From Escherichia phage 04922B, in sequence record OP331230.1: DNA of 39,427 nt. One strand, given 5' to 3'. Position numbers and translations under genes: made by a program. The stretch's first letter is position 1; the number at the start of each line of letters is the position of its first letter. The notes under the pieces are model-generated. The model did no database searches, had not been told where the DNA came from, and was given only the letters and a program-made list of their open reading frames with translations. This document shows positions 1-23,446 of the stretch, piece after piece.

Positions 1-1029
1 GCTACTATGACTGGTGGACAGCAACTGGGTACTAACCAAGGTAAAGGTCAAAGTGCTGGTGATAAACTGGCGTTGTTCTTGAAGGTATTTGGTGGTGAAG
101 TTCTGACTGCATTCGCTCGTACCTCTGTGACCACTTCTCGACACATGACCCGTTCCATCTCCAGCGGTAAATCCGCTCAGTTCCCTGTACTGGGTCGTAC
201 TCAGGCGGCTTACTTGTCTCCTGGTGAGAACCTCGACGATATTCGTAAAGACATCAAACACACCGAGAAGACCATCACCATTGACGGCCTCCTGACGGCA
301 GACGTTCTGATTTACGATATTGAGGACGCAATGAACCACTATGACGTTCGCTCTGAGTATACCTCTCAGCTTGGAGAATCTCTGGCTATGGCTGCTGATG
401 GTGCAGTTCTGGCTGAGATTGCCGGTCTGTGTAACTTGGTGGGAACCTCTAACGAGAACATTGAGGGCTTAGGCTCTGCAACGGTAATTGAGACTACTCA
501 GGCTAAGACTGCACTTACCGACCAAGTTGCTCTGGGTAAAGAGATTATTGCGGCTCTGACTAAGGCTCGTGCGGCTCTGACCAAGAACTACGTTCCGGCT
601 GCTGACCGTGTGTTCTACTGTGACCCGGATAGCTACTCTGCGATTCTGGCAGCACTGATGCCTAACGCTGCAAACTACGCTGCATTGATTGACCCTGAGA
701 AGGGTTCCATCCGCAACGTTATGGGCTTTGAGGTTGTAGAAGTTCCTCACCTCACTGCTGGCGGTGCTGGCACCTCTCGCTCGGATACCTCTGGTCAGAA
801 GCACGCCTTCCCTGCCACTAAGAGTGGTAACGACAAGGTGGCTAAAGACAACGTTATCGGACTGTTCATGCATCGTTCTGCGGTTGGTACTGTGAAGCTG
901 CGTGACTTGGCTCTGGAACGTGCTCGCCGAGCTAACTTCCAAGCGGACCAGATTATCGCGAAGTACGCAATGGGTCACGGTGGTCTGCGCCCAGAAGCTG
1001 CTGGTGCTGTAGTTTTCAAGGGGGAGTAA
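1..1029 (+). CDS. 10A: Major capsid protein 10A; 5' partial in this linearisation, start codon is at 39425-39427
   Basis: Translation MTGGQQLGTNQGKG...AVVFKGE is near-identical to T7 gp10A as I recall it; reading frame is continuous with the ATG at the window end. Confidence 0.96.
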   Translation, partial: ATMTGGQQLGTNQGKGQSAGDKLALFLKVFGGEVLTAFARTSVTTSRHMTRSISSGKSAQFPVLGRTQAAYLSPGENLDDIRKDIKHTEKTITIDGLLTADVLIYDIEDAMNHYDVRSEYTSQLGESLAMAADGAVLAEIAGLCNLVGTSNENIEGLGSATVIETTQAKTALTDQVALGKEIIAALTKARAALTKNYVPAADRVFYCDPDSYSAILAALMPNAANYAALIDPEKGSIRNVMGFEVVEVPHLTAGGAGTSRSDTSGQKHAFPATKSGNDKVAKDNVIGLFMHRSAVGTVKLRDLALERARRANFQADQIIAKYAMGHGGLRPEAAGAVVFKGE

Positions 1030-1860: not shown

Positions 1861-4251
1861 ATGGCACTCATTAGCCAATCAATCAAGAACTTGAAGGGTG
1901 GTATCAGCCAACAGCCTGACATCCTTCGTTATCCCGACCAAGGGTCACGCCAAGTTAACGGTTGGTCTTCGGAGACCGAGGGCCTCCAAAAGCGTCCACC
2001 TATGGTTTTCCTTAAGACACTGGGAGGAAGTGGTGACTTAGGACAAGCACCTCTCATTCACCTGATAAACCGTGACGAGTACGAGCGGTACTACGCAGTG
2101 TTTACCGGAAGTACAATCCGAGTTTTTGATTTAGCTGGTAACGAGAAACAAGTGCGTTTCCCTTCAGGGGCAGCGTATGTACAGACAGCTAACCCAAGGA
2201 ATGACCTTAGGATGGTAACAGTTGCAGACTACACGTTTGTCGTTAACAGAAACGTCACAGTAACCGAGTCAACCGAAATTTCAACTGGTGGTAACTTTCG
2301 GGATAAAGGTGACGCTCTGATTAACGTGCGAGGTGGTCAATATGGAAGAACATTGAAGGTTCTGATTAATGGTACAGTATATGCATCATACACAATCCCC
2401 AACGGGTCCGCTCCAGAACACGTCAATAACACAGATGCTCAATGGCTTGCTAACGAGTTGGCTAAAAATCTTAGGAACACCCTAGGACCCCACGGGTGGA
2501 CATTCAACGTTGGTCAAGGGTTCATTCATGTGATAGCTCCTGCCAACGGCGAGATAGTCAACATATCAACCGAGGATGGATACGCAGACCAGCTAATTAA
2601 CCCCGTCACGCACTACGCTCAGTCGTTCTCTAAGTTGCCACCAAACGCTCCAGACGGCTACATGGTTAAGATTGTTGGAGATTCCTCAAAGTCCGCTGAC
2701 CAGTATTACGTTCAGTATGATGCCAGTCGTAAGGTATGGAAGGAAGTTGTTGGGTGGAACACCAAGCTGCACTACACTCATGCTACGATGCCTCACGCTC
2801 TCATTAGGGCCTCTGATGGTAACTTTGAATTCCAGACCATCTCGTGGAACCCTAGGGTGTGCGGTGATGCCGATACTAACCCGTATCCTTCATTCGTAGG
2901 CTCTACGATTAATGATGTCTTCTTCTTCCGTAACCGTTTAGGATTCCTTAGCGGAGAGAATATCATATTGAGTCGTACTGCAAAATACTTCAACTTCTTC
3001 CCAGCGTCGGTTGCTAACCTAAGTGATGATGACCCTATCGACGTAGCTGTGAGTACCAACCGAATCGCAATCCTTAAGTACGCCGTTCCGTTCTCAGAAG
3101 AGTTACTCATCTGGTCCGATGAAGCACAGTTCGTACTGACTGCTTCTGGGACTCTCACGTCGAAGTCGGTTGAGTTGAACCTAACGACTCAGTTTGACGT
3201 ACAGGACCGAGCGAGACCTTTTGGGATTGGACGAAATGTCTACTTTGCTAGTCCGAGGTCCAGCTTCACGTCCATCCACAGATACTATGCTGTGCAGGAC
3301 GTAAGTTCCGTTAAGAACGCTGAGGACATTACAGCACACGTTCCTAACTACATTCCAAATGGTGTGTTTAGTATTTGTGGTAGTGGTACCGAAAACTTCT
3401 GTTCTGTACTATCTCACGGGGACCCTAGCAAAATCTTCATGTACAAATTCCTGTACCTTAACGAAGAGCTAAGGCAACAGTCGTGGTCTCACTGGGACTT
3501 TGGGGCAAACGTGCAGGTTTTGGCATGTCAGAGCATCAACTCAGATATGTTCATTATTCTACGTAACGAGTTCAATACGTTCCTTGCGAGAGTTTCCTTT
3601 ACGAAGAACGCCATTGACTTACAGGGAGAACCCTATCGGGCCTTTATGGATATGAAGATTCGCTACACGATTCCAAGCGGAACGTACAACGATGACACCT
3701 ACGAAACTTCCATTCACATACCAACCATTTATGGTGCGAACTTCGGGAGGGGCAAAATCACTGTATTGGAGCCTGATGGTAAGATAACCGTATTTGAGCA
3801 ACCAACTTCTGGGTGGAACAATGACCCATGGTTGAGGCTTAGTGGTAACTTAGAGGGACGAACGGTATACATTGGGTTCAACATTAACTTCGTCTATGAG
3901 TTCTCTAAGTTTCTCATCAAGCAGACTGCCGACGATGGGTCAACCTCAACGGAAGACATTGGTCGCTTGCAGTTACGCCGAGCGTGGGTTAACTATGAGG
4001 AGTCTGGTACGTTTGACATTTATGTTGAGAACCAATCATCCAACTGGAAGTATACGATGGCTGGTGCTCGCTTAGGCTCTAACACTCTGAGGGCTGGTCG
4101 ATTGAACTTAGGGACAGGACAATACCGATTCCCTGTGGTTGGTAACGCCAAGTTCAATACCGTGTCTATCTTGTCTGACGAGACTACCCCGCTGAACATC
4201 ATTGGTTGTGGCTGGGAAGGTAACTACTTACGGAGAAGTTCCGGTATTTAA
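1861..4251 (+). CDS. 12: Tail tubular protein B (gp12)
   Basis: 796-aa ORF recognised as T7 gp12 (794 aa); RBS aaggagg upstream. Confidence 0.95.
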   Translation: MALISQSIKNLKGGISQQPDILRYPDQGSRQVNGWSSETEGLQKRPPMVFLKTLGGSGDLGQAPLIHLINRDEYERYYAVFTGSTIRVFDLAGNEKQVRFPSGAAYVQTANPRNDLRMVTVADYTFVVNRNVTVTESTEISTGGNFRDKGDALINVRGGQYGRTLKVLINGTVYASYTIPNGSAPEHVNNTDAQWLANELAKNLRNTLGPHGWTFNVGQGFIHVIAPANGEIVNISTEDGYADQLINPVTHYAQSFSKLPPNAPDGYMVKIVGDSSKSADQYYVQYDASRKVWKEVVGWNTKLHYTHATMPHALIRASDGNFEFQTISWNPRVCGDADTNPYPSFVGSTINDVFFFRNRLGFLSGENIILSRTAKYFNFFPASVANLSDDDPIDVAVSTNRIAILKYAVPFSEELLIWSDEAQFVLTASGTLTSKSVELNLTTQFDVQDRARPFGIGRNVYFASPRSSFTSIHRYYAVQDVSSVKNAEDITAHVPNYIPNGVFSICGSGTENFCSVLSHGDPSKIFMYKFLYLNEELRQQSWSHWDFGANVQVLACQSINSDMFIILRNEFNTFLARVSFTKNAIDLQGEPYRAFMDMKIRYTIPSGTYNDDTYETSIHIPTIYGANFGRGKITVLEPDGKITVFEQPTSGWNNDPWLRLSGNLEGRTVYIGFNINFVYEFSKFLIKQTADDGSTSTEDIGRLQLRRAWVNYEESGTFDIYVENQSSNWKYTMAGARLGSNTLRAGRLNLGTGQYRFPVVGNAKFNTVSILSDETTPLNIIGCGWEGNYLRRSSGI

Positions 4252-5349: not shown

Positions 5350-7593
5350 ATGAGTAAGATTGAATCTGCCCTTCAAGCCGCACAACCGGGACTATCTAGG
5401 TTACGTAGTGGCGCTGGTGGTATGGGCTATCGTGCAGCAACCACTCAGGCCGAACAGCCTAAGTCAAGCCTATTGGACACCATTGGTCGGTTCGCTCAGG
5501 CTGGAGCCGATATGTATACCGCTAAGGAACAACGTGCTCGTGACCTAGCCGATGAACGCTCTAACGAGATTATTCGCAAGCTGACCCCTGAGCAACGCCG
5601 AGAGGCTCTCAACAACGGGACCCTTCTGTATCAGGATGACCCATACGCTATGGAAGCACTACGAGTCAAGACTGGTCGTAACGCTGCGTACCTAGTTGAT
5701 GATGACGTTATGCAGAAGGTAAAAGAGGGTGTCTTCCGTACTCGTGAAGAGATGGAACAGTATCGCCACAGTCGTCTTCAAGAGGGCGCTAAGGCATACG
5801 CTGAGCAGTTTGGGATTGACCCTGATGACGTTGATTATCAGCGTGGTTTCAACGGGGACATCACTGAGCGTAACATCTCACTGTATGGTGCGCATGATAA
5901 CTTCTTGAGCCAGCAAGCTCAGAAGGGTGCCATCATGAACAGCCGAGTGGAACTCAACGGTGTCCTTCAAGACCCTGATATGCTTCGCCGCCCAGACTCT
6001 GCTGACTTCTTTGAGAAGTACATCGACAATGGTCTGGTTACTGGGGCAATCCCATCTGATGCTCAAGCCACACAGCTTATAAGCCAAGCGTTCAGTGACG
6101 CTTCTAGCCGTGCTGGTGGTGCTGACTTCCTGATGCGAGTCGGGGACAAGAAGGTAACACTTAACGGAGCCACTACGACTTACCGAGAGTTGATGGGTGA
6201 GGAACAGTGGAATGCTCTAATGGTGACAGCACAACGCTCTCAGTTTGAGACTGACGCTAAGCTGAACGAGCAGTATCGCTTGAAGATTAACTCTGCGCTG
6301 AACCAAGAGGACCCTCGTACTGCGTGGGAGATGCTTCAAGGTATCAAGGCTGAACTAGATAAGGTACAACCTGATGAGCAGATGACACCACAACGTGAGT
6401 GGCTAATCTCCGCACAGGAACAAGTTCAGAATCAGATGAATGCATGGACGAAAGCTCAGGCCAAGGCTCTGGACGATTCCATGAAGTCAATGAACAAACT
6501 TGACGTAATCGACAAGCAATTCCAGAAGCGAATCAACGGTGAGTGGGTCTCAACGGATTTTAAGGATATGCCAGTCAACGAGAACACTGGTGAGTTCAAG
6601 CATAGCGATATGGTTAACTACGCCAATAAGAAGCTCGCTGAGATTGACCGTATGGATATTCCAGATGGCGCTAAGGACGCTATGAAGTTGAAGTACCTTC
6701 AAGCTGACTCTAAGGACGGTGCATTCCGTACAGCAATCGGGACTATGGTAACAGACGCTGGTCAAGAGTGGTCTGCCGCTGTGATTAACGGTAAGTTACC
6801 GGACAATACCCCAGCTTTGGATGCTCTACGTAGAATCCGTAATGCCGACCCTCAGTTGATTGCTGCGCTATACCCAGACCAAGCTGAGTTATTCCTTACG
6901 ATGGACATGATGGACAAGCAAGGTCTCGACCCTCAGCTTCTTCTTGATGCCGACCGACTGACTGTTAAGCGGTCCAAAGAGCAACGCTTTGAGGATGATA
7001 AAGCATTTGAGTCTGCACTGAATGCGTCTAAGGCTCCTGAGATTGCCCGTATGCCAGCGTCACTGCGCGAATCTGCACGTAAGATTTATGACTCAGTTAA
7101 GTATCGCTCAGGGAACGAAAGCATGGCTATGGAGCAGATGACCAAGTTCCTTAAGGAATCTACCTACACGTTCACTGGTGACGATGTTGATGGTGATACT
7201 ATTGGTGTAATTCCGAAGAACATGATGCAAGTCAACTCTGACCCGAAATCATGGGAGCAAGGTCGTGATATTCTGGAGGAAGCACGTAAGGGAATCATTG
7301 CGAGCAACCCTTGGATAACCAATAAGCAACTGACCATGTATTCACAAGGTGACTCCATTTACCTTATGGATACCACTGGTCAAGTCCGCGTCCGTTATGA
7401 TAAAGAGTTACTCTCGAAGGTCTGGAGTGAGAACCAGAAGAAACTCGAAGAGAAGGCTCGCGAGAAGGCTCTGGCTGATGTTAACAAGCGAGCACCTATA
7501 GTTGCCGCTACGAAGGCCCGTGAAGCTGCTGCTAAACGAGTCCGAGAGAAACGTAAACAGACTCCTAAGTTCATCTACGGACGTAAGGAGTAA
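5350..7593 (+). CDS. 15: Internal virion (core) protein C (gp15)
   Basis: 747-aa ORF, same length as T7 gp15. Confidence 0.94.
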   Translation: MSKIESALQAAQPGLSRLRSGAGGMGYRAATTQAEQPKSSLLDTIGRFAQAGADMYTAKEQRARDLADERSNEIIRKLTPEQRREALNNGTLLYQDDPYAMEALRVKTGRNAAYLVDDDVMQKVKEGVFRTREEMEQYRHSRLQEGAKAYAEQFGIDPDDVDYQRGFNGDITERNISLYGAHDNFLSQQAQKGAIMNSRVELNGVLQDPDMLRRPDSADFFEKYIDNGLVTGAIPSDAQATQLISQAFSDASSRAGGADFLMRVGDKKVTLNGATTTYRELMGEEQWNALMVTAQRSQFETDAKLNEQYRLKINSALNQEDPRTAWEMLQGIKAELDKVQPDEQMTPQREWLISAQEQVQNQMNAWTKAQAKALDDSMKSMNKLDVIDKQFQKRINGEWVSTDFKDMPVNENTGEFKHSDMVNYANKKLAEIDRMDIPDGAKDAMKLKYLQADSKDGAFRTAIGTMVTDAGQEWSAAVINGKLPDNTPALDALRRIRNADPQLIAALYPDQAELFLTMDMMDKQGLDPQLLLDADRLTVKRSKEQRFEDDKAFESALNASKAPEIARMPASLRESARKIYDSVKYRSGNESMAMEQMTKFLKESTYTFTGDDVDGDTIGVIPKNMMQVNSDPKSWEQGRDILEEARKGIIASNPWITNKQLTMYSQGDSIYLMDTTGQVRVRYDKELLSKVWSENQKKLEEKAREKALADVNKRAPIVAATKAREAAAKRVREKRKQTPKFIYGRKE

Positions 7594-7622: not shown

Positions 7623-10600
7623 ATGGATAAGTACGATAAGAACGTACCAAGTGATTATGATGGTCTGTTCCAAAAGGCGGCTGATGCCAACGGGGTCTCT
7701 TATGACCTTTTACGTAAAGTCGCTTGGACGGAATCACGATTTGTACCTACAGCAAAGTCTAAGACTGGACCATTAGGTATGATGCAATTTACCAAGGCAA
7801 CCGCTAAGGCCCTTGGTCTGCGAGTTACCGATGGTCCAGATGACGACCGACTGAACCCTGAGTTAGCTATCAACGCTGCTGCTAAGCACCTTGCGGGTCT
7901 GGTTGGTAAATTCGATGGTGATGAACTCAAAGCTGCCCTTGCGTATAACCAAGGCGAGGGACGCTTGGGTAATCCACAACTTGAGGCGTACTCTAAGGGA
8001 GACTTCGCGTCCATCTCTGAGGAGGGGCGTAATTACATGCGTAGCCTTCTGGATGTTGCTAAGTCACCTATGGCTGGACAGTTGGAAACTTTTGGAGGCA
8101 TCACCCCAAAGGGTAAAGGAATTCCGGCTGAGGTAGGATTGGCTGGAATTGGTCATAAGCAGAAGGTGACACAGGAACTACCTGAGTCCACAAGTTTTGA
8201 CGTTAAGGGTATCGAACAGGAGGCTCCGGCGAAACCATTCGCCAAGGACTTTTGGGAGACCCACGGAGAAACGCTTGACGAATACAACAGTCGTTCAACC
8301 TTCTTCGGATTCAAAAATGCTGCCGAAGCTGAACTCTCCAACTCAGTCGCTGGGATGGCTTTCCGTGCTGGTCGTCTCGATAATGGTTTTGACGTGTTTA
8401 AAGACACCATTACGCCGACTCGCTGGAACTCTCACATCTGGACTCCAGAAGAGTTAGAGAAGATTAGAACAGAGGTTAAGAACCCTGCGTACATCAACGT
8501 GGTAACTGGTGGTTCCCCTGAGAATCTTGACGACCTCATTAAGCTGGCTAACGAGAACTTTGAGAATGACTCACTAGCTGCCGAAGCTGGTCTAGGTGCA
8601 AAACTGAGTGCTGGTATTATTGGCGCTGGCGTGGACCCTCTTAGCTATGTCCCTATGGTCGGTGTCACTGGTAAGGGCTTTAAGTTAATCAATAAGGCTC
8701 TTGTAGTTGGTGCAGAAAGTGCTGCTCTGAACGTTGCATCCGAAGGTCTCCGTACCTCCGTAGCTGGCGGTGACGCAGACTACGCTGGTGCGGCCTTAGG
8801 TGGCTTTGTGTTTGGCGCTGGTATGTCTGCAATCAGTGACGCTATAGCTGCTGGACTTAAACGTAGTAAACCAGAAGCTGAGTTCGATAATGAGTTCATC
8901 GGCCCTATGATGCGGATGGAAGCCCGTGAGACAGCACGCAACGCCAACTCTGCTGACCTCTCTCGGATGAACACTGAGAACATGAAGTTTGAAGGTGAAC
9001 ATAATGGTGTCCCTTATGAGGACTTATCAACCGAGAAAGGTGCCGTGGTGTTACAGGATGGCTCCGTTCTAAGTGCAAGCAACCCAATCAACCCTAAGAC
9101 CCTCAAAGAGTTCTCCGAGGTTGACCCTGAGAAGGCTGCGAGAGGAATCAAACTTGCTGGATTCACCGAGATAGGCTTGAAGACCTTGGGGTCTGACGAT
9201 GCTGACATCCGTAGAGTGGCTATCGACCTCGTTCGCTCTCCTACTGGTATGCAGTCTGGTGCCTCCGGTAAGTTCGGTGCAACAGCTTCTGACATCCATG
9301 AGAGACTTCATGGTACTGACCAGCGTACTTATAATGACTTGTACAAAGCAATGTCTGACGCTATGAAAGACCCTGAGTTCTCTACTGGCGGCGCTAAGAT
9401 GTCCCGTGAAGAAGCTCGATACACTATCTACCGTAGAGCGGCACTAGCTATTGAGCGTCCAGAGTTGCAGAAGGCACTAACCCCGTCTGAGAGAATCGTT
9501 ATGGACATTATTAAGCGCCACTTTGACACCAAGCGTGAACTTATGGAGAATCCTGCAATCTTCGGTAATACGAAGGCTGTGAGTATTTTCCCTGAGAGTC
9601 GCCACAAAGGGACTTACGTTCCTCACGTTTACGACCGTCATGCTAAAGCACTGATGATTCAACGCTACGGTGCCGAAGGTTTACAGGAAGGTATTGCTCG
9701 TTCGTGGATGAACAGCTACGTCTCCAGACCTGAGGTCAAGGCCAGAGTCGATGAGATGCTTAAGGAATTACACGGGGTGAAGGAAGTAACGCCAGAGATG
9801 GTAGAGAAGTACGCTATGGATAAGGCTTATGGTATCTCCCATTCAGACCAGTTCACCAACAGTTCCATCATTGAAGAGAACATTGAGGGCTTAGTAGGTA
9901 TAGAGAACAACTCATTCCTTGAGGCACGTAACTTGTTTGATTCGGACCTATCCATCACTATGCCAGACGGACAGCAATTCTCGGTGAACGACCTAAGGGA
10001 CTTCGATATGTTCCGCATCATGCCAGCGTATGACCGCCGTATTAATGGTGACATCGCCATCATGGGGTCTACTGGTAAAACCACTAAGGAACTTAAGGAT
10101 GAGATTTTGGCTCTCAAGGCGAAAGCTGAGGGTGACGGTAAGAAGACTGGCGAGGTTCATGCTCTAATGGATACCGTTAAGATTCTTACTGGTCGTGCTC
10201 GACGCAATCAGGACACTGTGTGGGAAACCTCACTGCGTTCCATCAATGACCTAGGGTTCTTCGCTAAGAACGCCTACATGGGTGCTCAGAACCTTACGGA
10301 GATTGCTGGTATGATTGCCACGGGCAACGTTCGTGCTCTAGGCCACGGTATCCCAATTCTGCGTGATACACTCTACAAGTCTAAACCAGTTTCCGCTAAG
10401 GAACTCAAGGAACTCCATGCGTCTCTGTTCGGGAAGGAGGTGGACCAGTTGATTCGCCCTAAACGTGCTGACATTGTGCAGCGCCTAAGGGAAGCAACTG
10501 ATACTGGCCCTGCTGTGGCGAACATCGTAGGGACCTTGAAGTATTCCACACAGGAACTGGCTGCTCGCTCTCCATGGACTAAGATGCTGAACGGGACCAC

Positions 10601-11579
10601 TAACTACCTTCTGGATGCGGCACGTCAAGGTATGCTAGGGGACGTTATTAGTGCCACCCTAACAGGTAAGACTACCCGCTGGGAGAAAGAAGGATTCCTT
10701 CGTGGCGCCTCCGTAACTCCTGAGCAGATGGCTGGCATCAAGTCTCTCATCAAGGAGCATATGGTCCGTGGCGAGGACGGGAAGTTTACCGTTAAGGACA
10801 AGCAAGCGTTCTCTATGGACCCTCGTGCTATGGACTTATGGCGACTTGCTGACAAGGTAGCTGATGAGGCAATGCTGCGTCCACACAAGGTGTCCTTACA
10901 GGATTCCCATGCGTTCGGAGCATTAGGTAAAATGGTTATGCAGTTTAAGTCTTTCACTATCAAGTCACTTAACTCTAAGTTCCTGCGAACCTTCTACGAT
11001 GGGTACAAGAACAACCGAGCGATTGACGCTGCGTTGACTGGTATCATCTCTATGGGTCTCGCTGGGGGTTACTACGCTATGGCTGCACACGTCAAAGCAT
11101 ATGGGATGCCTAAGGAGAAACGTAAGGAGTACTTGGAGAGAGCACTGGACCCAACCATGATTGCACACGCTTCGTTGTCTCGTAGTTCTCAATTGGGTGC
11201 TCCTTTGGCTATGGCTGACCTAGTAGGTGGTGTCTTAGGGTTCGAGTCGTCCAAGATGGCTCGCTCTACGATTCTACCTAAGGACACCATGAAGGAACGA
11301 GACCCAAACAAACCGTACACCTCCAGAGAGGTAATGGGAGCTATGGGTTCAAACCTTCTGGAACAGATGCCTTCTGCTGGCTTTGTGGCTAACGTAGGGG
11401 CTACCTTAATGAATGCTGCTGGCGTGGTCAACTCACCTAACAAAGCAACCGAGCAGGACTTCATGACTGGCTTGATGCACTCTACCAAAGAGTTAGTACC
11501 TAACGACCCTCTTACTCAACAGCTTGTGATTAAGATTTATGAGGCCAATGGTGTTAACTTAAGGGAACGTAGGAAATAA
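7623..11579 (+). CDS. 16: Internal virion protein D (gp16) with N-terminal lytic transglycosylase domain
   Basis: 1318-aa ORF; N-terminus carries the SLT-type signature WTESRF...GPLGMMQF; length equals T7 gp16. Confidence 0.95.
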   Translation: MDKYDKNVPSDYDGLFQKAADANGVSYDLLRKVAWTESRFVPTAKSKTGPLGMMQFTKATAKALGLRVTDGPDDDRLNPELAINAAAKHLAGLVGKFDGDELKAALAYNQGEGRLGNPQLEAYSKGDFASISEEGRNYMRSLLDVAKSPMAGQLETFGGITPKGKGIPAEVGLAGIGHKQKVTQELPESTSFDVKGIEQEAPAKPFAKDFWETHGETLDEYNSRSTFFGFKNAAEAELSNSVAGMAFRAGRLDNGFDVFKDTITPTRWNSHIWTPEELEKIRTEVKNPAYINVVTGGSPENLDDLIKLANENFENDSLAAEAGLGAKLSAGIIGAGVDPLSYVPMVGVTGKGFKLINKALVVGAESAALNVASEGLRTSVAGGDADYAGAALGGFVFGAGMSAISDAIAAGLKRSKPEAEFDNEFIGPMMRMEARETARNANSADLSRMNTENMKFEGEHNGVPYEDLSTEKGAVVLQDGSVLSASNPINPKTLKEFSEVDPEKAARGIKLAGFTEIGLKTLGSDDADIRRVAIDLVRSPTGMQSGASGKFGATASDIHERLHGTDQRTYNDLYKAMSDAMKDPEFSTGGAKMSREEARYTIYRRAALAIERPELQKALTPSERIVMDIIKRHFDTKRELMENPAIFGNTKAVSIFPESRHKGTYVPHVYDRHAKALMIQRYGAEGLQEGIARSWMNSYVSRPEVKARVDEMLKELHGVKEVTPEMVEKYAMDKAYGISHSDQFTNSSIIEENIEGLVGIENNSFLEARNLFDSDLSITMPDGQQFSVNDLRDFDMFRIMPAYDRRINGDIAIMGSTGKTTKELKDEILALKAKAEGDGKKTGEVHALMDTVKILTGRARRNQDTVWETSLRSINDLGFFAKNAYMGAQNLTEIAGMIATGNVRALGHGIPILRDTLYKSKPVSAKELKELHASLFGKEVDQLIRPKRADIVQRLREATDTGPAVANIVGTLKYSTQELAARSPWTKMLNGTTNYLLDAARQGMLGDVISATLTGKTTRWEKEGFLRGASVTPEQMAGIKSLIKEHMVRGEDGKFTVKDKQAFSMDPRAMDLWRLADKVADEAMLRPHKVSLQDSHAFGALGKMVMQFKSFTIKSLNSKFLRTFYDGYKNNRAIDAALTGIISMGLAGGYYAMAAHVKAYGMPKEKRKEYLERALDPTMIAHASLSRSSQLGAPLAMADLVGGVLGFESSKMARSTILPKDTMKERDPNKPYTSREVMGAMGSNLLEQMPSAGFVANVGATLMNAAGVVNSPNKATEQDFMTGLMHSTKELVPNDPLTQQLVIKIYEANGVNLRERRK

Positions 11580-11599
11580 TACGACTCACTATAGGGAGA
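11577..11599 (+). promoter_or_regulatory. T7-RNAP promoter phi17
   Basis: taatacgactcactatagggaga overlapping the gene 16 stop codon. Confidence 0.93.
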
Positions 11600-11651
11600 G
11601 GCGAAGGAATCTTCTCCCTGTAGTCTCTTAGATTTACTTTAAGGAGGTCAA

Positions 11652-13316
11652 ATGGCTAACGTAATTAAAACCGTTTTGACTTACCCGTTAGATGGCTCCA
11701 ATCGTGATTTTAATATCCCGTTTGAGTATCTAGCCCGTAAGTTCGTAGTGGTAACTCTTATTGGTGTAGACCGAAAGGTCCTTACTATTAATACAGACTA
11801 CCGTTTTGCTACGCGTACTACCATCTCACTGACCAAGGCTTGGGGTCCAGCTGATGGCTATACTACCATCGAGTTACGTCGAGTAACCTCCACGACCGAT
11901 AGATTGGTTGACTTTACGGACGGCTCAATCCTCCGTGCGTATGACCTTAACGTCGCTCAGATTCAGACCATGCACGTTGCTGAGGAAGCGCGTGACCTTA
12001 CCGCTGATACTATTGGTGTCAACAACGATGGTCACTTGGACGCTCGTGGTCGCCGTATCGTGAACCTTGCTAACGCCGTGGATGACCGTGACGCTGTTCC
12101 GCTGGGGCAACTCAAGACCATGAACCAGAACTCGTGGCAGGCGCGTAATGAGGCCCTACAGTTCCGTAATGAGGCTGAGACTTTCAGAAATCAAGCGGAG
12201 GGCTTTAAGAACGAGTCTAGCACTAACGCTACGAACACTAATCAGTGGCGTAATGAGGCTAAGGGGTTCCGTGATGAAGCAGAGCAGTTCAAGAATACGG
12301 CTGGTCAATATGCTACATCTGCTGGGAACTCTGCTACTGCCGCACATCAATCTGAGGTGAACGCTGCTAACTCCGCAACTGCTTCCGCTAACTCTGCTAC
12401 TCTGGCAGAACAGCAAGCAGACCGCGCCGAGCGTGAGGCTGATAAACTTGGTAACTGGAACGGACTTGCTGGTGCTGTAGATAGTGTTCAGGGTGATAGT
12501 GTATTCTGGAAAGGAAGCGGCTATTGGGTCGGAGGTCCCGTATACCGACTACAAACGAACCACGCGTTTAGGTTCCGTATGGGTCTTTGGGAAGAAGGCG
12601 ACTTCCTTAAGTCTGACTTCGCTATGGACCGACCGGACGGTATAGGGTTCATAGAGTATGCAGCGGACAAGACTGGTCAACATCGTCACCAGATTCGACT
12701 TAATCAGTTAACAATAGCTGGCGGTGTGTTAGAGTCAGATGCTGATGGTTTCATATCCCACGCTTTCGCTGACCAGTACACCACTAAAGCTCCCTTCTTC
12801 CAGCAGATTCAGGTACAATCTACAAGCTCATATCACCCAATAATAAAGCAACGAACTTACCAATCTGGACGGTGGGCAGGATGCTGGTCTATCGGTACAT
12901 TGCTGACTGGAACGCATCCGTCATTCCACATACATATGAGAGACGAATCGTCAAATGATAAACTTTGGACGTTCAATACCAATGGAGACTTCCTCGTCCC
13001 TGGGGAGATTTGGGCCAATGGTGGGCGTGTGGTTGTACAGAATGGCTCTTTTAACCCTGCTGGTAGAGTTTGGGGTACTGCGTATGATTCTGGATACCTA
13101 GATGATTGGATAAGGGCTAACTGGCCCGGCGATATTTATTGGGGTCCTCAACGCTGGGTACAAAAGTGGGGAGGTTATGCAGACATAGTTGCTGGTGCTG
13201 GGGAAGCATGCTCTGGTGTAACCGCTGATGGTAGCGGTAACGTTGCGGGTGCATTCTTCCGAGCGCTTTGGCTTGGATATCACAACGGTAATAAACGATT
13301 GGTTGCTTCCCAATAA
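11652..13316 (+). CDS. 17: Tail fiber protein gp17; T7-like N-terminal half, unrelated C-terminal distal domain
   Basis: 554-aa ORF. Residues 1 to about 285 (MANVIKTVLTY...ADRAEREADKL) match T7 gp17; the rest (...FHIHMRD...GNKRLVASQ) does not match the T7 C-terminus I recall. Confidence 0.9.
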   Translation: MANVIKTVLTYPLDGSNRDFNIPFEYLARKFVVVTLIGVDRKVLTINTDYRFATRTTISLTKAWGPADGYTTIELRRVTSTTDRLVDFTDGSILRAYDLNVAQIQTMHVAEEARDLTADTIGVNNDGHLDARGRRIVNLANAVDDRDAVPLGQLKTMNQNSWQARNEALQFRNEAETFRNQAEGFKNESSTNATNTNQWRNEAKGFRDEAEQFKNTAGQYATSAGNSATAAHQSEVNAANSATASANSATLAEQQADRAEREADKLGNWNGLAGAVDSVQGDSVFWKGSGYWVGGPVYRLQTNHAFRFRMGLWEEGDFLKSDFAMDRPDGIGFIEYAADKTGQHRHQIRLNQLTIAGGVLESDADGFISHAFADQYTTKAPFFQQIQVQSTSSYHPIIKQRTYQSGRWAGCWSIGTLLTGTHPSFHIHMRDESSNDKLWTFNTNGDFLVPGEIWANGGRVVVQNGSFNPAGRVWGTAYDSGYLDDWIRANWPGDIYWGPQRWVQKWGGYADIVAGAGEACSGVTADGSGNVAGAFFRALWLGYHNGNKRLVASQ

Positions 13317-13325
13317 GGAGACATT

Positions 13326-13709
13326 ATGCGTAAATTTACTAACTGGACATACGAAGTAACTACCGCTTACGGCGGTATCGCCACTTATGACGTGACGGCC
13401 TCTTGTGGGACCGATTGGTATGAACTCATGGTTGAACTTGAGGACCGACCTGAGAGATGGGTCGTCGGTCTTGATAAGAACGGATTCATCTCATGGTTCT
13501 CCGATGGTACTGTTAACGGCACTTATGCGCCACCTGAGGGCGGTCTGGTGATTGTCACCGATGAGTTCGACCCTGAGTGGCAACGTGTTAAACTTTGGAA
13601 CGGGGAGTCCTTCGAGGATATCCCTAAGCCACCTAAACGTACACCTGAGGAAATCCAAGCAGACCTTGAGGCTCTGATGGTTGAACTTCGTGCGCTTAGG
13701 GAGGGATAA
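13326..13709 (+). CDS. Inserted 127-aa ORF absent from T7; possible tail-fiber assembly chaperone
   Basis: Strong RBS taaggagacattATG; sits between gene 17 and the holin where T7 has only a short spacer; segment PPEGGLVIVTDEFDPEWQRVKLWNGESF weakly resembles Tfa-type assembly proteins (memory-based, unverified). Confidence 0.6.
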   Translation: MRKFTNWTYEVTTAYGGIATYDVTASCGTDWYELMVELEDRPERWVVGLDKNGFISWFSDGTVNGTYAPPEGGLVIVTDEFDPEWQRVKLWNGESFEDIPKPPKRTPEEIQADLEALMVELRALREG

Positions 13710-13723
13710 TGGAGGTAAACTAA

Positions 13724-13927
13724 ATGTTGTCTTTAGATTTCAACAACGAAATCGTAAAGGCGGCTCCGATTGTCGGGACGGGTGTGGCTGATGGTGCAGC
13801 CCGTCTCTTCTTTGGATTGTCGCTAAACGAATGGTTCTACGTTGCCGCTATCGCCTACACAGTGGTTCAGATTGGTGCCAAGGTAGTCGATAAGATGATT
13901 GACTGGAAGAGAGCCAATAAGGAGTGA
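13724..13927 (+). CDS. 17.5: Type II holin (gp17.5)
   Basis: 67-aa ORF MLSLDFNNEIVKAAPIVGTGVADGAARLFFGLSLNEWFYVAAIAYTVVQIGAKVV..., recognised as T7 gp17.5. Confidence 0.93.
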   Translation: MLSLDFNNEIVKAAPIVGTGVADGAARLFFGLSLNEWFYVAAIAYTVVQIGAKVVDKMIDWKRANKE

Positions 13928-13932
13928 TACAT

Positions 13933-14202
13933 ATGGAAAAGGATAAGAGCCTTATTACATTCTTAGAGATGTTGGACACTGCGATGGCTCAGCGTATGCT
14001 TGCTGATTTATCCAATGATGAGCGTCGGACTCCGCAACTTTATAATGCTATTAACAAACTGTTAGACCGACACAAGTTCCAGATTGGTAAGTTGCAGCCG
14101 GATGTTCACATCTTGGGCGGCCTTGCTGGTGCTCTTGAAGAGTACAAAGAGAAAGTCGGTGATAACGGTCTTACGGATGACGATATTTACACATTACAGT
14201 GA
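13933..14202 (+). CDS. 18: Terminase small subunit (gp18)
   Basis: MEKDKSLITFLEMLDTAMAQRMLADLS... recognised as T7 gp18; ATG at 13933 chosen over the upstream in-frame ATG of the 13924 ORF to match the T7 N-terminus. Confidence 0.92.
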   Translation: MEKDKSLITFLEMLDTAMAQRMLADLSNDERRTPQLYNAINKLLDRHKFQIGKLQPDVHILGGLAGALEEYKEKVGDNGLTDDDIYTLQ

Positions 14203-14247
14203 TATGCTCAAGGCCACTACATATAGTGGTCTTTATGGATGTCATTG
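14203..14247 (+). promoter_or_regulatory. RNase III processing hairpin (R18.5-like)
   Basis: ctcaaggccactac...gtggtctttatg, the conserved T7 RNase III stem-loop architecture. Confidence 0.7.
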
Positions 14248-14296
14248 TCTACACGAGATGCTCCTACGTGAAATCTGAAAGTTAACGGGAGGCATT

Positions 14297-14743
14297 ATGC
14301 TACAATTTTTACGTAAGCTGGTCCCTTGGGTTATCGCTGGGATGCTGTTCGGATGGGGATGGCAACTTGGGGCTGACTCAATGGACGCCAAGTGGAAACA
14401 GGAGGTACAGAATGAGTACGTTAAGAGAGTTGAGGCTACGGCGAGCACTCAAAGAGCAATCAATGAGATATCGGCTAAGTATCAAGAAGACCTTGCCGCG
14501 CTGGAAGGGAGCACTGATAGGATTATTTCTGATTTGCGTAGCGACAATAAGCGGCTGCGCGTCAGAGTCAAAACTACCGGAACCTCCGATGGTGAGTGTG
14601 GATTCGAGCCTGATGGTCGAGCCGAACTTGACGACCGAGATGCTAAAAGTATTCTCGCAGTGACCCAAAAGGGTGACGCGTGGATTCGTGCCCTACAGGA
14701 CACTATACGAGAATTACAGAATAAGCAGGAGGTTAAGCAATGA
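14297..14743 (+). CDS. 18.5: i-spanin, Rz-like (gp18.5)
   Basis: 148-aa [25 protein letters not shown]... with N-terminal TM segment; recognised as T7 gp18.5. Confidence 0.92.
14412..14663 (+). CDS. 18.7: o-spanin, Rz1-like lipoprotein (gp18.7), embedded in 18.5 in another frame
   Basis: [16 protein letters not shown]... with lipobox ATISGCAS; recognised as T7 gp18.7. Confidence 0.88.
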   Translation: MSTLRELRLRRALKEQSMRYRLSIKKTLPRWKGALIGLFLICVATISGCASESKLPEPPMVSVDSSLMVEPNLTTEMLKVFSQ

Positions 14744-16922: not shown

Positions 16923-17161
16923 GGTCTTCCTGACAGACTGATGGCTCACCGAGGGATTCAGCGGTATGATTGCATCACACCACTTCATCCCTATAGAGTC
17001 AAGTCCTAAGGTATACCCATAAAGAGCCTCTAATGGTCTATCCTAAGGTCTATACCTAAAGATAGACCATCCTATCAGTGCCACCTAAAGAGGGTCTCAG
17101 AGAGGGCCTAAGGAGTCCCTAGAGGGTCCTTTAAAATATACCATAAAAATCTGAGTGACTA

Positions 17162-17309
17162 TCTCACAGTGTACGGACCTAAAGTTCCCCCCATAGGGGT
17201 ACCTAAAGCCCAGCCAATCACCTAAAGTCAACCTTCGGTTGACCTTGAGGGTTCCCTAGGGTTGGGGTTGGGTCATTGGGTTTACCTTTGAGTGTCTCTC
17301 TGTGTCCCT
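17162..17309. repeat. Terminal repeat of the mature linear genome, single copy (concatemer-junction form)
   Basis: tctcacagtgtacggacctaaag...gagtgtctctctgtgtccct matches the T7 terminal-repeat start and end; exact boundaries are approximate. Confidence 0.75.
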
Positions 17310-20794: not shown

Positions 20795-23446
20795 ATGAAC
20801 ACGATTAACATCGCTAAGAACGACTTCTCTGACATCGAACTGGCTGCTATTCCGTTCAATACTCTAGCTGACCATTACGGTGAGCGTTTAGCTCGCGAGC
20901 AGTTGGCCCTTGAGCATGAGTCTTACGAAATGGGTGAAGCACGATTCCGCAAGATGTTTGAGCGTCAACTTAAAGCTGGTGAGGTTGCGGATAACGCTGC
21001 CGCTAAGCCTCTCATTACTACCCTGCTCCCTAAGATGATTGCACGCATCAACGACTGGTTTGAGGAAGTGAAAGCTAAGCGCGGCAAACGCCCGACAGCC
21101 TTCCAGTTCCTGCAAGAAATCAAGCCGGAAGCGGTAGCGTACATCACCATTAAGACCACTCTGGCTTGCCTAACCAGTGCAGACAATACAACCGTTCAGG
21201 CTGTAGCAAGCGCAATCGGTCGAGCCATTGAGGATGAGGCTCGCTTCGGTCGCATCCGTGACCTTGAAGCCAAGCACTTCAAGAAAAACGTTGAGGAACA
21301 ACTAAACAAGCGTGTAGGTCACGTCTACAAGAAAGCATTCATGCAGGTTGTCGAAGCGGACATGCTCTCTAAGGGTCTACTGGGTGGCGAGGCGTGGTCT
21401 TCATGGCATAAGGAAGACTCCATTCACGTGGGGGTTCGCTGCATTGAGATGCTCATTGAGTCAACAGGAATGGTTAGCTTGCATCGTCAAAATGCTGGCG
21501 TAGTAGGTCAAGACTCTGAGACTATCGAACTCGCACCGGAATACGCTGAGGCTATCGCTACTCGCGCTGGAGCACTAGCTGGCATTTCCCCAATGTTCCA
21601 GCCTTGCGTAGTCCCTCCTAAGCCTTGGACTGGTATTACTGGTGGTGGCTATTGGGCTAACGGTCGCCGTCCTCTGGCGCTGGTACGCACTCATAGTAAG
21701 AAAGCACTGATGCGCTACGAAGATGTTTACATGCCTGAGGTGTACAAAGCGATTAACATTGCGCAAAACACCGCATGGAAAATCAACAAGAAAGTCCTAG
21801 CGGTCGCAAACGTAATCACCAAGTGGAAGCACTGCCCTGTAGAGGACATCCCAGCGATTGAACGTGAAGAACTCCCGATGAAACCGGAAGACATCGACAC
21901 GAATCCTGAGGCTCTCACCGCATGGAAACGTGCCGCTGCCGCTGTGTACCGTAAAGACAAGGCTCGCAAGTCTCGCCGTATCAGCCTTGAGTTCATGCTT
22001 GAGCAAGCCAACAAGTTCGCTAACCATAAGGCCATCTGGTTCCCTTACAACATGGACTGGCGCGGTCGTGTTTACGCTGTGTCAATGTTCAACCCGCAAG
22101 GTAACGATATGACCAAGGGTCTGCTGACGCTGGCGAAAGGTAAACCAATCGGTAAGGAAGGTTACTACTGGTTGAAAATCCACGGTGCAAACTGTGCTGG
22201 TGTCGATAAGGTTCCGTTCCCTGAGCGCATCAAGTTCATTGAGGACAACCACGAGAACATCATGGCTTGCGCTAAGTCTCCACTGGAGAACACTTGGTGG
22301 GCTGAGCAAGATTCTCCGTTCTGCTTCCTTGCGTTCTGCTTTGAGTACGCTGGGGTACAACACCACGGCCTTAGCTACAACTGCTCTCTTCCGCTGGCGT
22401 TCGATGGGTCTTGCTCTGGTATTCAGCACTTCTCCGCGATGCTCCTTGATGAGATAGGTGGTCGTGCGGTTAACCTGCTGCCTAGTGAAACCGTTCAGGA
22501 CATCTACGGGATTGTCGCTAAGAAAGTAAATGTGATTCTGCAAGCAGATGTAATCAACGGGACCGACAACGAAGTAGTTACCGTGACAGATGAGAACACT
22601 GGTGAAATCTCTGAGAAAGTCAAGCTGGGCACTAAGGCGCTGGCTGGTCAATGGCTGGCTTACGGTGTTACTCGCAGCGTGACTAAGCGTTCAGTCATGA
22701 CGCTGGCTTACGGGTCCAAAGAGTTCGGCTTCCGTCAACAAGTGCTGGAAGATACCATTCAACCAGCTATTGATTCCGGTAAAGGTCTGATGTTTACTCA
22801 ACCGAATCAGGCTGCTGGGTACATGGCTAAACTGATTTGGGAAGCTGTGAGCGTCACGGTGGTGGCTGCGGTTGAAGCAATGAACTGGCTTAAGTCTGCT
22901 GCTAAGCTGCTGGCTGCTCAGGTCAAAGATAAGAAGACTGGAGAGATTCTTCGCAAGCGTTGCGCTGTGCATTGGGTAACTCCTGATGGGTTCCCTGTGT
23001 GGCAGGAATACAAGAAGCCAATTCAAACTCGCTTGAACCTGATGTTCCTCGGTCAGTTCCGCTTACAGCCAACCATTAACACTAACAAGGATAGTGAGAT
23101 TGATGCACACAAACAGGAGTCCGGTATTGCTCCTAACTTTGTACACAGCCAAGATGGTAGCCACCTGCGTAAGACTGTGGTGTGGGCGCATGAGAAGTAC
23201 GGAATCGAATCATTTGCGTTGATTCACGACTCCTTCGGGACAATTCCTGCTGATGCTGCCAACTTGTTCAAAGCTGTGCGTGAAACTATGGTCGACACCT
23301 ATGAGTCTTGTGATGTACTGGCTGACTTCTATGACCAGTTCGCCGACCAGTTACACGAGTCTCAATTGGATAAAATGCCAGCACTTCCTGCTAAGGGTAA
23401 CTTGAATCTCCAAGACATCCTTAAGTCAGACTTCGCGTTCGCGTAA
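20795..23446 (+). CDS. 1: T7-type single-subunit DNA-dependent RNA polymerase (gp1)
   Basis: 883-aa ORF MNTINIAKNDFSDIELAAIPFNTLADHYGERLAREQ... with DGSCSGIQHFSA and HDSFGT motifs; near-identical to T7 RNAP. Confidence 0.98.
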   Translation: MNTINIAKNDFSDIELAAIPFNTLADHYGERLAREQLALEHESYEMGEARFRKMFERQLKAGEVADNAAAKPLITTLLPKMIARINDWFEEVKAKRGKRPTAFQFLQEIKPEAVAYITIKTTLACLTSADNTTVQAVASAIGRAIEDEARFGRIRDLEAKHFKKNVEEQLNKRVGHVYKKAFMQVVEADMLSKGLLGGEAWSSWHKEDSIHVGVRCIEMLIESTGMVSLHRQNAGVVGQDSETIELAPEYAEAIATRAGALAGISPMFQPCVVPPKPWTGITGGGYWANGRRPLALVRTHSKKALMRYEDVYMPEVYKAINIAQNTAWKINKKVLAVANVITKWKHCPVEDIPAIEREELPMKPEDIDTNPEALTAWKRAAAAVYRKDKARKSRRISLEFMLEQANKFANHKAIWFPYNMDWRGRVYAVSMFNPQGNDMTKGLLTLAKGKPIGKEGYYWLKIHGANCAGVDKVPFPERIKFIEDNHENIMACAKSPLENTWWAEQDSPFCFLAFCFEYAGVQHHGLSYNCSLPLAFDGSCSGIQHFSAMLLDEIGGRAVNLLPSETVQDIYGIVAKKVNVILQADVINGTDNEVVTVTDENTGEISEKVKLGTKALAGQWLAYGVTRSVTKRSVMTLAYGSKEFGFRQQVLEDTIQPAIDSGKGLMFTQPNQAAGYMAKLIWEAVSVTVVAAVEAMNWLKSAAKLLAAQVKDKKTGEILRKRCAVHWVTPDGFPVWQEYKKPIQTRLNLMFLGQFRLQPTINTNKDSEIDAHKQESGIAPNFVHSQDGSHLRKTVVWAHEKYGIESFALIHDSFGTIPADAANLFKAVRETMVDTYESCDVLADFYDQFADQLHESQLDKMPALPAKGNLNLQDILKSDFAFA

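Follow-up and report, generated by a model that had tools for sequence, protein, structure and literature searches.

The host range of T7-like phages is determined mainly by gene 17, a favoured engineering target. In Escherichia phage 04922B (OP331230.1) its product, the tail fibre protein gp17, starts as a close copy of T7 gp17 and continues, from near its middle, as a different sequence. A preliminary description of the locus attributed this change to a host-range module exchanged by recombination inside gene 17 and marked the segment 12500-13316. The locus raises the question of what was exchanged, where the exchanged segment begins and ends, and whether the new fibre half came by itself. 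It is argued here that gene 17 is recombinant and that its distal half-fibre is of a chaperone-assisted kind, accompanied by its own helper gene, a reading that, taken as a whole, is given a probability of about 75%.

Genome context of gene 17

The window analysed is the whole record, 39,427 nt, and all positions refer to it. It represents a complete T7-like (Teseptimavirus) genome, circularly permuted; among deposited phages, Escherichia phage JB01 is closest to it, with 92.7% identity and 94% of the first 25 kb covered. The structural-gene block opens with a 340-aa ORF at 7..1029, the largest ORF of the early region (20795..23446) presumably encodes the RNA polymerase, and the matches to linear phage records stop at ~17160-17300, which marks the natural genome end. 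According to the ORF map and Pfam, the plus strand carries a gp16 homologue (7623..11579), gp17, an ORF of 127 aa, the holin, gp18 and the spanin, in this order. Gene 17 lies between gp16 (internal virion protein D) and the lysis and packaging genes 17.5 and 18, an order identical to that of T7, where, however, genes 17 and 17.5 are only 58 nt apart and the 127-aa gene, here called the helper, is absent. The features of the locus are as follows.

11652..13316, plus strand: gene 17, 554 aa, stop codon TAA at 13314-13316
11652..12137, plus strand: tail-attachment domain, gp17 aa 1-162 (PF03906 Phage_T7_tail, E 2e-73; near-identical to T7 gp17, PDB 7boz, 8e4g, 8dsp)
12138..12474, plus strand: T7-like proximal shaft (repetitive 'rod'), gp17 aa ~163-274 (few substitutions against T7 gp17; DNA 82-100% identical to T7 and ~100% to CQ615)
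12475..12527, plus strand: left recombination junction, gp17 aa ~275-292, '...NWNGLAGAVDSVQGDSVFWKG' (drop in T7 DNA identity; end of megablast match; end of protein alignment after WKG)
12528..13100, plus strand: non-T7 distal shaft, gp17 aa ~293-483, with a widespread fibre domain at aa ~353-483 (tblastn, phrog_1699, protein scan)
13075..13134, plus strand: second, internal breakpoint, ~aa 483 (identity profiles against CQ615 and C5; megablast ends)
13101..13316, plus strand: fibre tip, gp17 aa 484-554 (71 aa), plus stop codon (AF2 pLDDT 77-90; tip/helper identity tracking; Cronus match)
13315..13320, plus strand: Shine-Dalgarno AAGGAG of the 127-aa gene (read from the sequence; overlaps the gp17 stop, 5 nt to the ATG at 13326)
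13326..13709, plus strand: 127-aa gene, predicted short Tfa-like tail-fibre assembly protein with a beta-rich N-terminal part and a C-terminal heptad helix, aa ~106-126 (synteny, phrog_136)
13710..13723, plus strand: right junction, a spacer with the holin ribosome-binding site GGAGG (T7 identity 75-100% again from 13726)
13724..13927, plus strand: holin gp17.5 (PF10746, E 6.5e-35), the first conserved T7 gene past the cassette

The exact gp17 sequence is absent from the public contig index, and a 98%-identical gp17 (P0001) was found in four Logan assemblies, in which the gene order matches the window. One contig with this gp17, from SRR10822056, has an extra 92-aa Endonuclease_7 (PF02945) ORF (contig 5606-5884) between gp18 and the spanin; the corresponding site of the window (14202-14297) is without it, and the ORF looks like an insertion polymorphism of a mobile nuclease.

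The break with T7

The N-terminal half of the fibre is that of T7. In a phmmer search against the PDB, gp17 aa 1-299 were aligned to T7 gp17 residues 1-298 (7boz, E 1.4e-173), and the near-identity, with scattered substitutions only, persists through '...VFWKG' (aa 292), slightly past residue 285 or so, up to which the preliminary description had judged the protein close to T7. The N-terminal PF03906 is the sole Pfam domain in gp17, and the proximal shaft is taken here, following published T7 fibre work, to be a coiled-coil rod. Beyond aa ~292 the distal halves of gp17 and T7 gp17 (NP_042005; PDB 4A0T) are unrelated in sequence, the total lengths being 554 and 553 aa. The earlier impression that the distal part is unlike T7 was confirmed by pairwise alignment, in which BLASTP of aa 284-554 against full T7 gp17 gave a best E of 0.16, and by the absence from gp17 of the C-terminal Pfam families PF12604 and PF20744, which T7-type homologues carry. 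Past aa 292, phmmer found no significant PDB sequence match. A short motif before the tip, GxxxGTxW...LDxxxR (window 13212-13274, gp17 aa ~471-491), occurs also in T7 gp17 at aa 443-463; alone statistically non-significant, it may represent a structural element conserved where shaft and tip meet.

The break is equally visible in the DNA. In sliding 60-nt windows, identity to T7 is 82-100% over 11581-12474, drops from 75% through 60% to 52% across 12415-12534 (60% at 12445-12504), lies at 0-50% from ~12475 to 13720, and is back at 75-100% from 13726. This profile, with its left junction in gene 17, supports the proposed exchange by recombination inside that gene. The start of the marked segment was accurate, lying within ~25 nt of the 12475-12527 junction; its end was too early, as the exchanged unit runs to ~13720 and includes the downstream 127-aa gene, so that gene 17 does not contain the right junction, which falls before the holin gene. 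It is probable that a host-range cassette of ~1.25 kb (about 12475-13720), made up of the distal half (aa ~293-554) and the 127-aa gene, stands in place of the T7 distal half.

The megablast matches of T3, T7M, phiA1122, the YpP phages, 64795_ec1, Bas102 and ESh2 all stop at gene positions 821-863, and many of the 1,120 gp17 protein homologues match only the first 50-58% of the query, their other C-terminal modules being the intramolecular chaperone PF13884, PF12604/PF20744, PF21446 or pectate-lyase-like spikes. These common match ends and varied modules point to the boundary between rod and distal half-fibre as a recurrent exchange point in the group. For gp17 itself, an intramolecular-chaperone reading was dropped because Pfam does not detect PF13884 (Peptidase_S74), which many other T7-group gp17 variants carry. 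The rod, too, can vary: Bas104 gp17 has 596 aa, with a proximal rod ~42 aa longer (Bas104 locus 2001-3791 against window 12031-12444) and 44% aa identity to the window over aa 151-285, yet both protein ends are conserved. A rod both longer and strongly divergent makes shaft length a third variable element of the fibre.

A second breakpoint within the distal half

A second breakpoint, near 13100, makes the distal half a mosaic in its own right. DNA identity to CQ615 (PQ010280) is ~100% from 11500 to ~13075, then falls from 93% through 67% to 52%, and stays at 40-65% until 13700; identity to C5 (NC_048079) is 80-93% upstream and then 95-100% from ~12565 to 14300. Up to ~13100 the window is ~100% identical in nucleotides to CQ615, compared with 80-93% to C5, JB01 (MW074885), Bas104 (PQ850595) and Serratia phage UFV01 (MT543041), and the megablast matches of CQ615, N30 (NC_048078) and AV103 (OR352934) stop at gene positions 1458-1461. 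C5, JB01, Bas104 and UFV01 have the same architecture as the window, namely a T7-type N-terminal half, a distal half 88-91% identical in amino acids and, before the holin, the 127-aa gene at 97-98%. CQ615, N30 and AV103 have the N-terminal half, the distal shaft to aa ~483 and the gene order of the window, combined with a tip allele of 54% and a helper allele (125 aa) of 44% aa identity to those of the window. The preliminary description had considered that the distal half might be a recognised T7-group variant with no breakpoint; it is a recognised variant, found in at least nine deposited T7-like genomes, but one with two breakpoints.

Among 50,697 phage records searched by tblastn, the complete distal half was found only in T7-like phages, with identities of 80-91% in C5, UFV01, JB01, Bas104, CQ615 and N30, 79% in AV103, 42% in Citrobacter phage YSYH and Klebsiella phage Koku, and 31-36% in Pila, D226 and P694. 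When only the distal fragment was used as query, a word-indexed protein search came back empty, while the full-length query and tblastn recovered the close homologues; since these exist, the empty result reflects a limit of the index. The match to 'Escherichia phage ST2' (OM982647.1, 171 kb, labelled partial genome) was discarded for its mixture of T7-like and unrelated genes. That record is classified as Kagunavirus and looks chimeric: next to unrelated genes it has T7-like ones for lysis, packaging and the fibre helper. In Serratia phage vB_SmaP-UFV01 (MT543041.1), the distal fibre is 91% and the helper 98% identical to the coliphage C5/window versions; unless the cassette works in both genera, the recorded Serratia host should be verified. 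A donor lineage, which the preliminary description had hoped to identify, did not emerge at the DNA level: no prophage donor turned up when the cassette was compared by blastn with 5,426 complete E. coli genomes.

The middle of the distal half is more widespread. By tblastn, gp17 aa ~332-475 match Tequatrovirus gp37 (34% identity, E 1e-10) near the gp37 N-terminus (aa ~60-189 of AndreasVesalius gp37), and phrog_1699, 'long tail fiber distal subunit', matches the distal shaft with E 4.7e-11. When 1.84 billion representative proteins were scanned exhaustively with HMMER, only 87 matched the distal half, most of them restricted to the middle domain (query residues ~70-200); the few that reach toward the C-terminus have N-termini of T7 type, or of P2 gpH type (PF12571), lambdoid-prophage (PF08400) or Phage_fiber_2 type. 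The last three belong to fibre classes with an assembly protein encoded separately, and the P2 gpH-type and lambdoid fibres share the distal domain with gp17 at 30-36% identity. The best structural match for the distal half was the Mu fibre.

Structure prediction of the distal domain was confident only at the tip, the sole AF2 region with pLDDT 77-90, which consists of a helix followed by beta strands. The tip, aa 484-554, is likely to be the end that binds the receptor and is contacted by the chaperone. The C-terminal 134 aa of gp17 align to the very end of the distal long tail fibre of Erwinia phage Cronus (Roskildevirus; E 9e-10), in which ~158 C-terminal aa align to gp17 aa 420-553, to the last residues.

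The 127-aa gene and the Tfa family

The 127-aa gene starts 9 nt past the gp17 stop codon, and the overlap of its ribosome-binding site with that stop codon suggests co-translation. By tblastn, homologues were found in 57 phage records, in which most of them adjoin fibre or holin annotations, and in the T7-like records inspected the immediate neighbours of the homologue are gene 17 on one side and the holin gene on the other. In the T4-like Cronus the homologue lies directly 3' of the distal long-tail-fibre gene, the position occupied in T-even phages by gene 38, and this adjacent ORF (130 aa) is 40-43% identical to the 127-aa protein. Cronus has a contractile tail and attaches its fibre through a T4-type gp34-36 chain; given this mode of attachment, the tip-plus-helper unit is the only part that Cronus and the window have in common. 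The nearest records (C5, JB01, UFV01 and Bas104) annotate the gene as 'hypothetical protein', and some GenBank records label more distant homologues 'tail fiber assembly protein'.

Homology to Tfa was found at the level of the family. Eight of 12 helper family members match phrog_136 (best E 1.8e-12, profile positions ~3-133 of 178), to which Mu U and P2 G belong (E 1e-81), and the 127-aa protein alone gives a weak match (E 0.03). From this coverage, the 127-aa protein would comprise the Tfa N-terminal domain and the start of the helical region. The conserved C-terminal helical (trimerisation) domain of Tfa is missing, the protein ending after one heptad helix of ~21 residues, and there was no match to the C-terminal PHROGs 3792, 105 and 188, which Mu U, P2 G and lambda Tfa do match. 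According to structural work on Tfa summarised in PMC9608196, the variable N-terminal domain binds the fibre and the conserved C-terminal helices mediate trimerisation. In the short helix of the 127-aa protein the hydrophobic residues I110, L114, L117, L121 and L124 are spaced 4-3-4-3, and this helix could be a minimal trimerisation element. Other comparisons were negative: the helper family profile gave nothing against Pfam and chance matches only (nanobodies) against the PDB, hhalign of the helper against a four-sequence Tfa alignment (Mu, P2, lambda) was non-significant at 4% probability, and the AF2 model of the protein (pLDDT 39) was unusable, as it was built on an alignment of two sequences, the word-indexed search having given one homologue.

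The arrangement of a fibre gene followed by a small assembly-protein gene is that of Mu S (gp49)/Tfa U (gp50; PDB 5YVQ / 8JU3), P2 H/G and lambda Stf/Tfa, the chaperone-dependent kind of fibre. Several differences separate the present case from these: Mu S has no detectable sequence similarity to gp17, the helper has 127 aa compared with 175-194 aa for the Mu, P2 and lambda Tfa proteins, and the carrier is a podovirus fibre anchored via the T7 N-terminal domain, unlike the Mu, P2 and lambda fibres. Within Teseptimavirus, a Mu-like Tfa downstream of the fibre was described in 2025 for Bas103 in the BASEL paper (PMC11990801). The Bas103 Tfa is not among the tblastn matches of the 127-aa protein and is therefore probably a different Tfa. 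The HZP2/HZ2R8 phage paper (PMC7598189) offered nothing useful on this fibre.

Tip and helper vary together

Protein identities to the window were compared by segment. In CQ615 they amount to 89% for aa 353-483 (the middle), 54% for aa 484-554 (the tip) and 44% for the 127-aa protein; in C5 the corresponding values are 85%, 99% and 98%. Across ten phages, tip identity and helper identity are correlated with a Pearson coefficient of 0.97 and a Spearman coefficient of 0.91, values that are descriptive and not a formal test because the ten phages are related; other gp17 segments track helper identity less well than the tip does. Tip and helper gene move and diverge as one inner sub-cassette, and in the window a CQ615-like fibre body is joined to a C5-like tip and helper.

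Proposed assembly and alternative explanations

In the assembly that we propose, the beta-rich N-terminal part of the 127-aa protein would bind the C-terminal tip of three gp17 chains, in what would be a 3:3 complex, and its short C-terminal helix would put the three chains in register, after which the gp17 trimer would fold from the tip toward the shaft. The protein may then stay bound to the tip, like Mu Tfa. The parallel variation of tip and helper lends indirect support to such a complex. A chaperone function of the 127-aa protein as such is likely.

If no module had been exchanged, the distal half would be a T7-type C-terminal domain diverged by point mutation under host-range selection, an account in line with the similar overall length, with the motif GxxxGTxWxxxxLDxxxR found in both proteins (BLASTP E 0.16) and with a weak Foldseek match of the distal half to the T7 gp17 C-terminal structure 4a0t (E 1e-2). 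It is hardly credible, and the DNA identity profile largely refutes it: T7 identity goes from >80% to background within ~60 nt and rises again just as abruptly at the holin gene, a whole extra gene is present, the nearest relative differs by segment (CQ615 upstream of ~13100, C5 downstream), and the significant relatives of the distal domain are found in P2-type, lambdoid and T4-like fibres, not in T7. The extra gene, for its part, might be an unrelated accessory hitch-hiker, such as an anti-defence or superinfection-exclusion moron, beside a fibre that folds alone. A helper that matches nothing in Pfam or the PDB by sequence, has no usable predicted structure, is called 'hypothetical protein' in the nearest records and lacks the conserved Tfa C-terminal domain would suit such a gene, but we consider it quite improbable, given that matches of its family to phrog_136, which includes Mu U and P2 G, reach E 1.8e-12, that it always lies directly 3' of the fibre gene, the T4-like myophage included, that its divergence follows the fibre tip and not the rest of the genome, that the overlap of its ribosome-binding site with the gp17 stop suggests co-translation, and that gp17, unlike other variants, does not have PF13884 as a substitute.

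Closer to the chaperone-assisted reading, which it overlaps and does not exclude, is the suggestion that the 127-aa protein acts mainly as an adhesin retained on the virion tip, like T2-type gp38 or Mu Tfa, and contacts the receptor instead of gp17. In Cronus the homologue does stand where gp38 would, behind the distal long-tail-fibre gene; phages that are otherwise nearly identical differ strongly in the helper (window and CQ615, 44% identity); and Mu Tfa reportedly stays on the mature fibre and has a part in host recognition (PMC9608196). On the other side, 127 aa is about the size of the Tfa N-domain plus one helix, and the homology detected is to the Tfa family, with no match to an adhesin family; a role mainly as adhesin is unlikely. 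A wider and tentative proposal, somewhat doubtful though not far-fetched, is that the tip (~70-135 aa) and the truncated 'mini-Tfa', devoid of the canonical trimerisation domain, form an autonomous host-range cassette exchanged between podoviruses (Teseptimavirus, Teetrevirus) and T4-like myoviruses (Roskildevirus). In that case the mini-Tfa would work differently from Mu-type Tfa, for instance as a tip subunit that stays bound permanently and aids receptor contact.

Receptor and implications for T7-like phages

The preliminary description predicted a receptor specificity different from that of T7, which is plausible by analogy with Bas104, whose distal half is 88% and whose helper 97% identical to those of the window. 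The Teseptimavirus phages Bas102-104 are reported to require restored O16 O-antigen on E. coli K-12 and not rough LPS, while the receptor of T7 is the rough LPS core (PMC11990801). From the likeness to Bas104 and its O16 requirement, a glycan receptor unlike that of T7 is the best guess, and the receptor is probably a surface glycan such as O-antigen.

Mosaic gp17 genes and Tfa-assisted fibres are already known in Teseptimavirus, and the fibre-plus-helper combination is present in C5, N30, JB01, UFV01, CQ615, AV103 and Bas104. The additions made here are modest: an ORF annotated as 'hypothetical protein' is assigned to a truncated type of Tfa, the breakpoints are seen to be nested, and a tip/helper unit is found to be common to the window and a T4-like phage. 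For the T7-like phages, the meaning would be that this fibre variant carries a dedicated helper gene and that tip and helper must move together, with junctions at about 12475-12527, ~13100 and ~13720, which provides practical rules for host-range swaps and for annotating the many 'hypothetical' ORFs that lie between genes 17 and 17.5.
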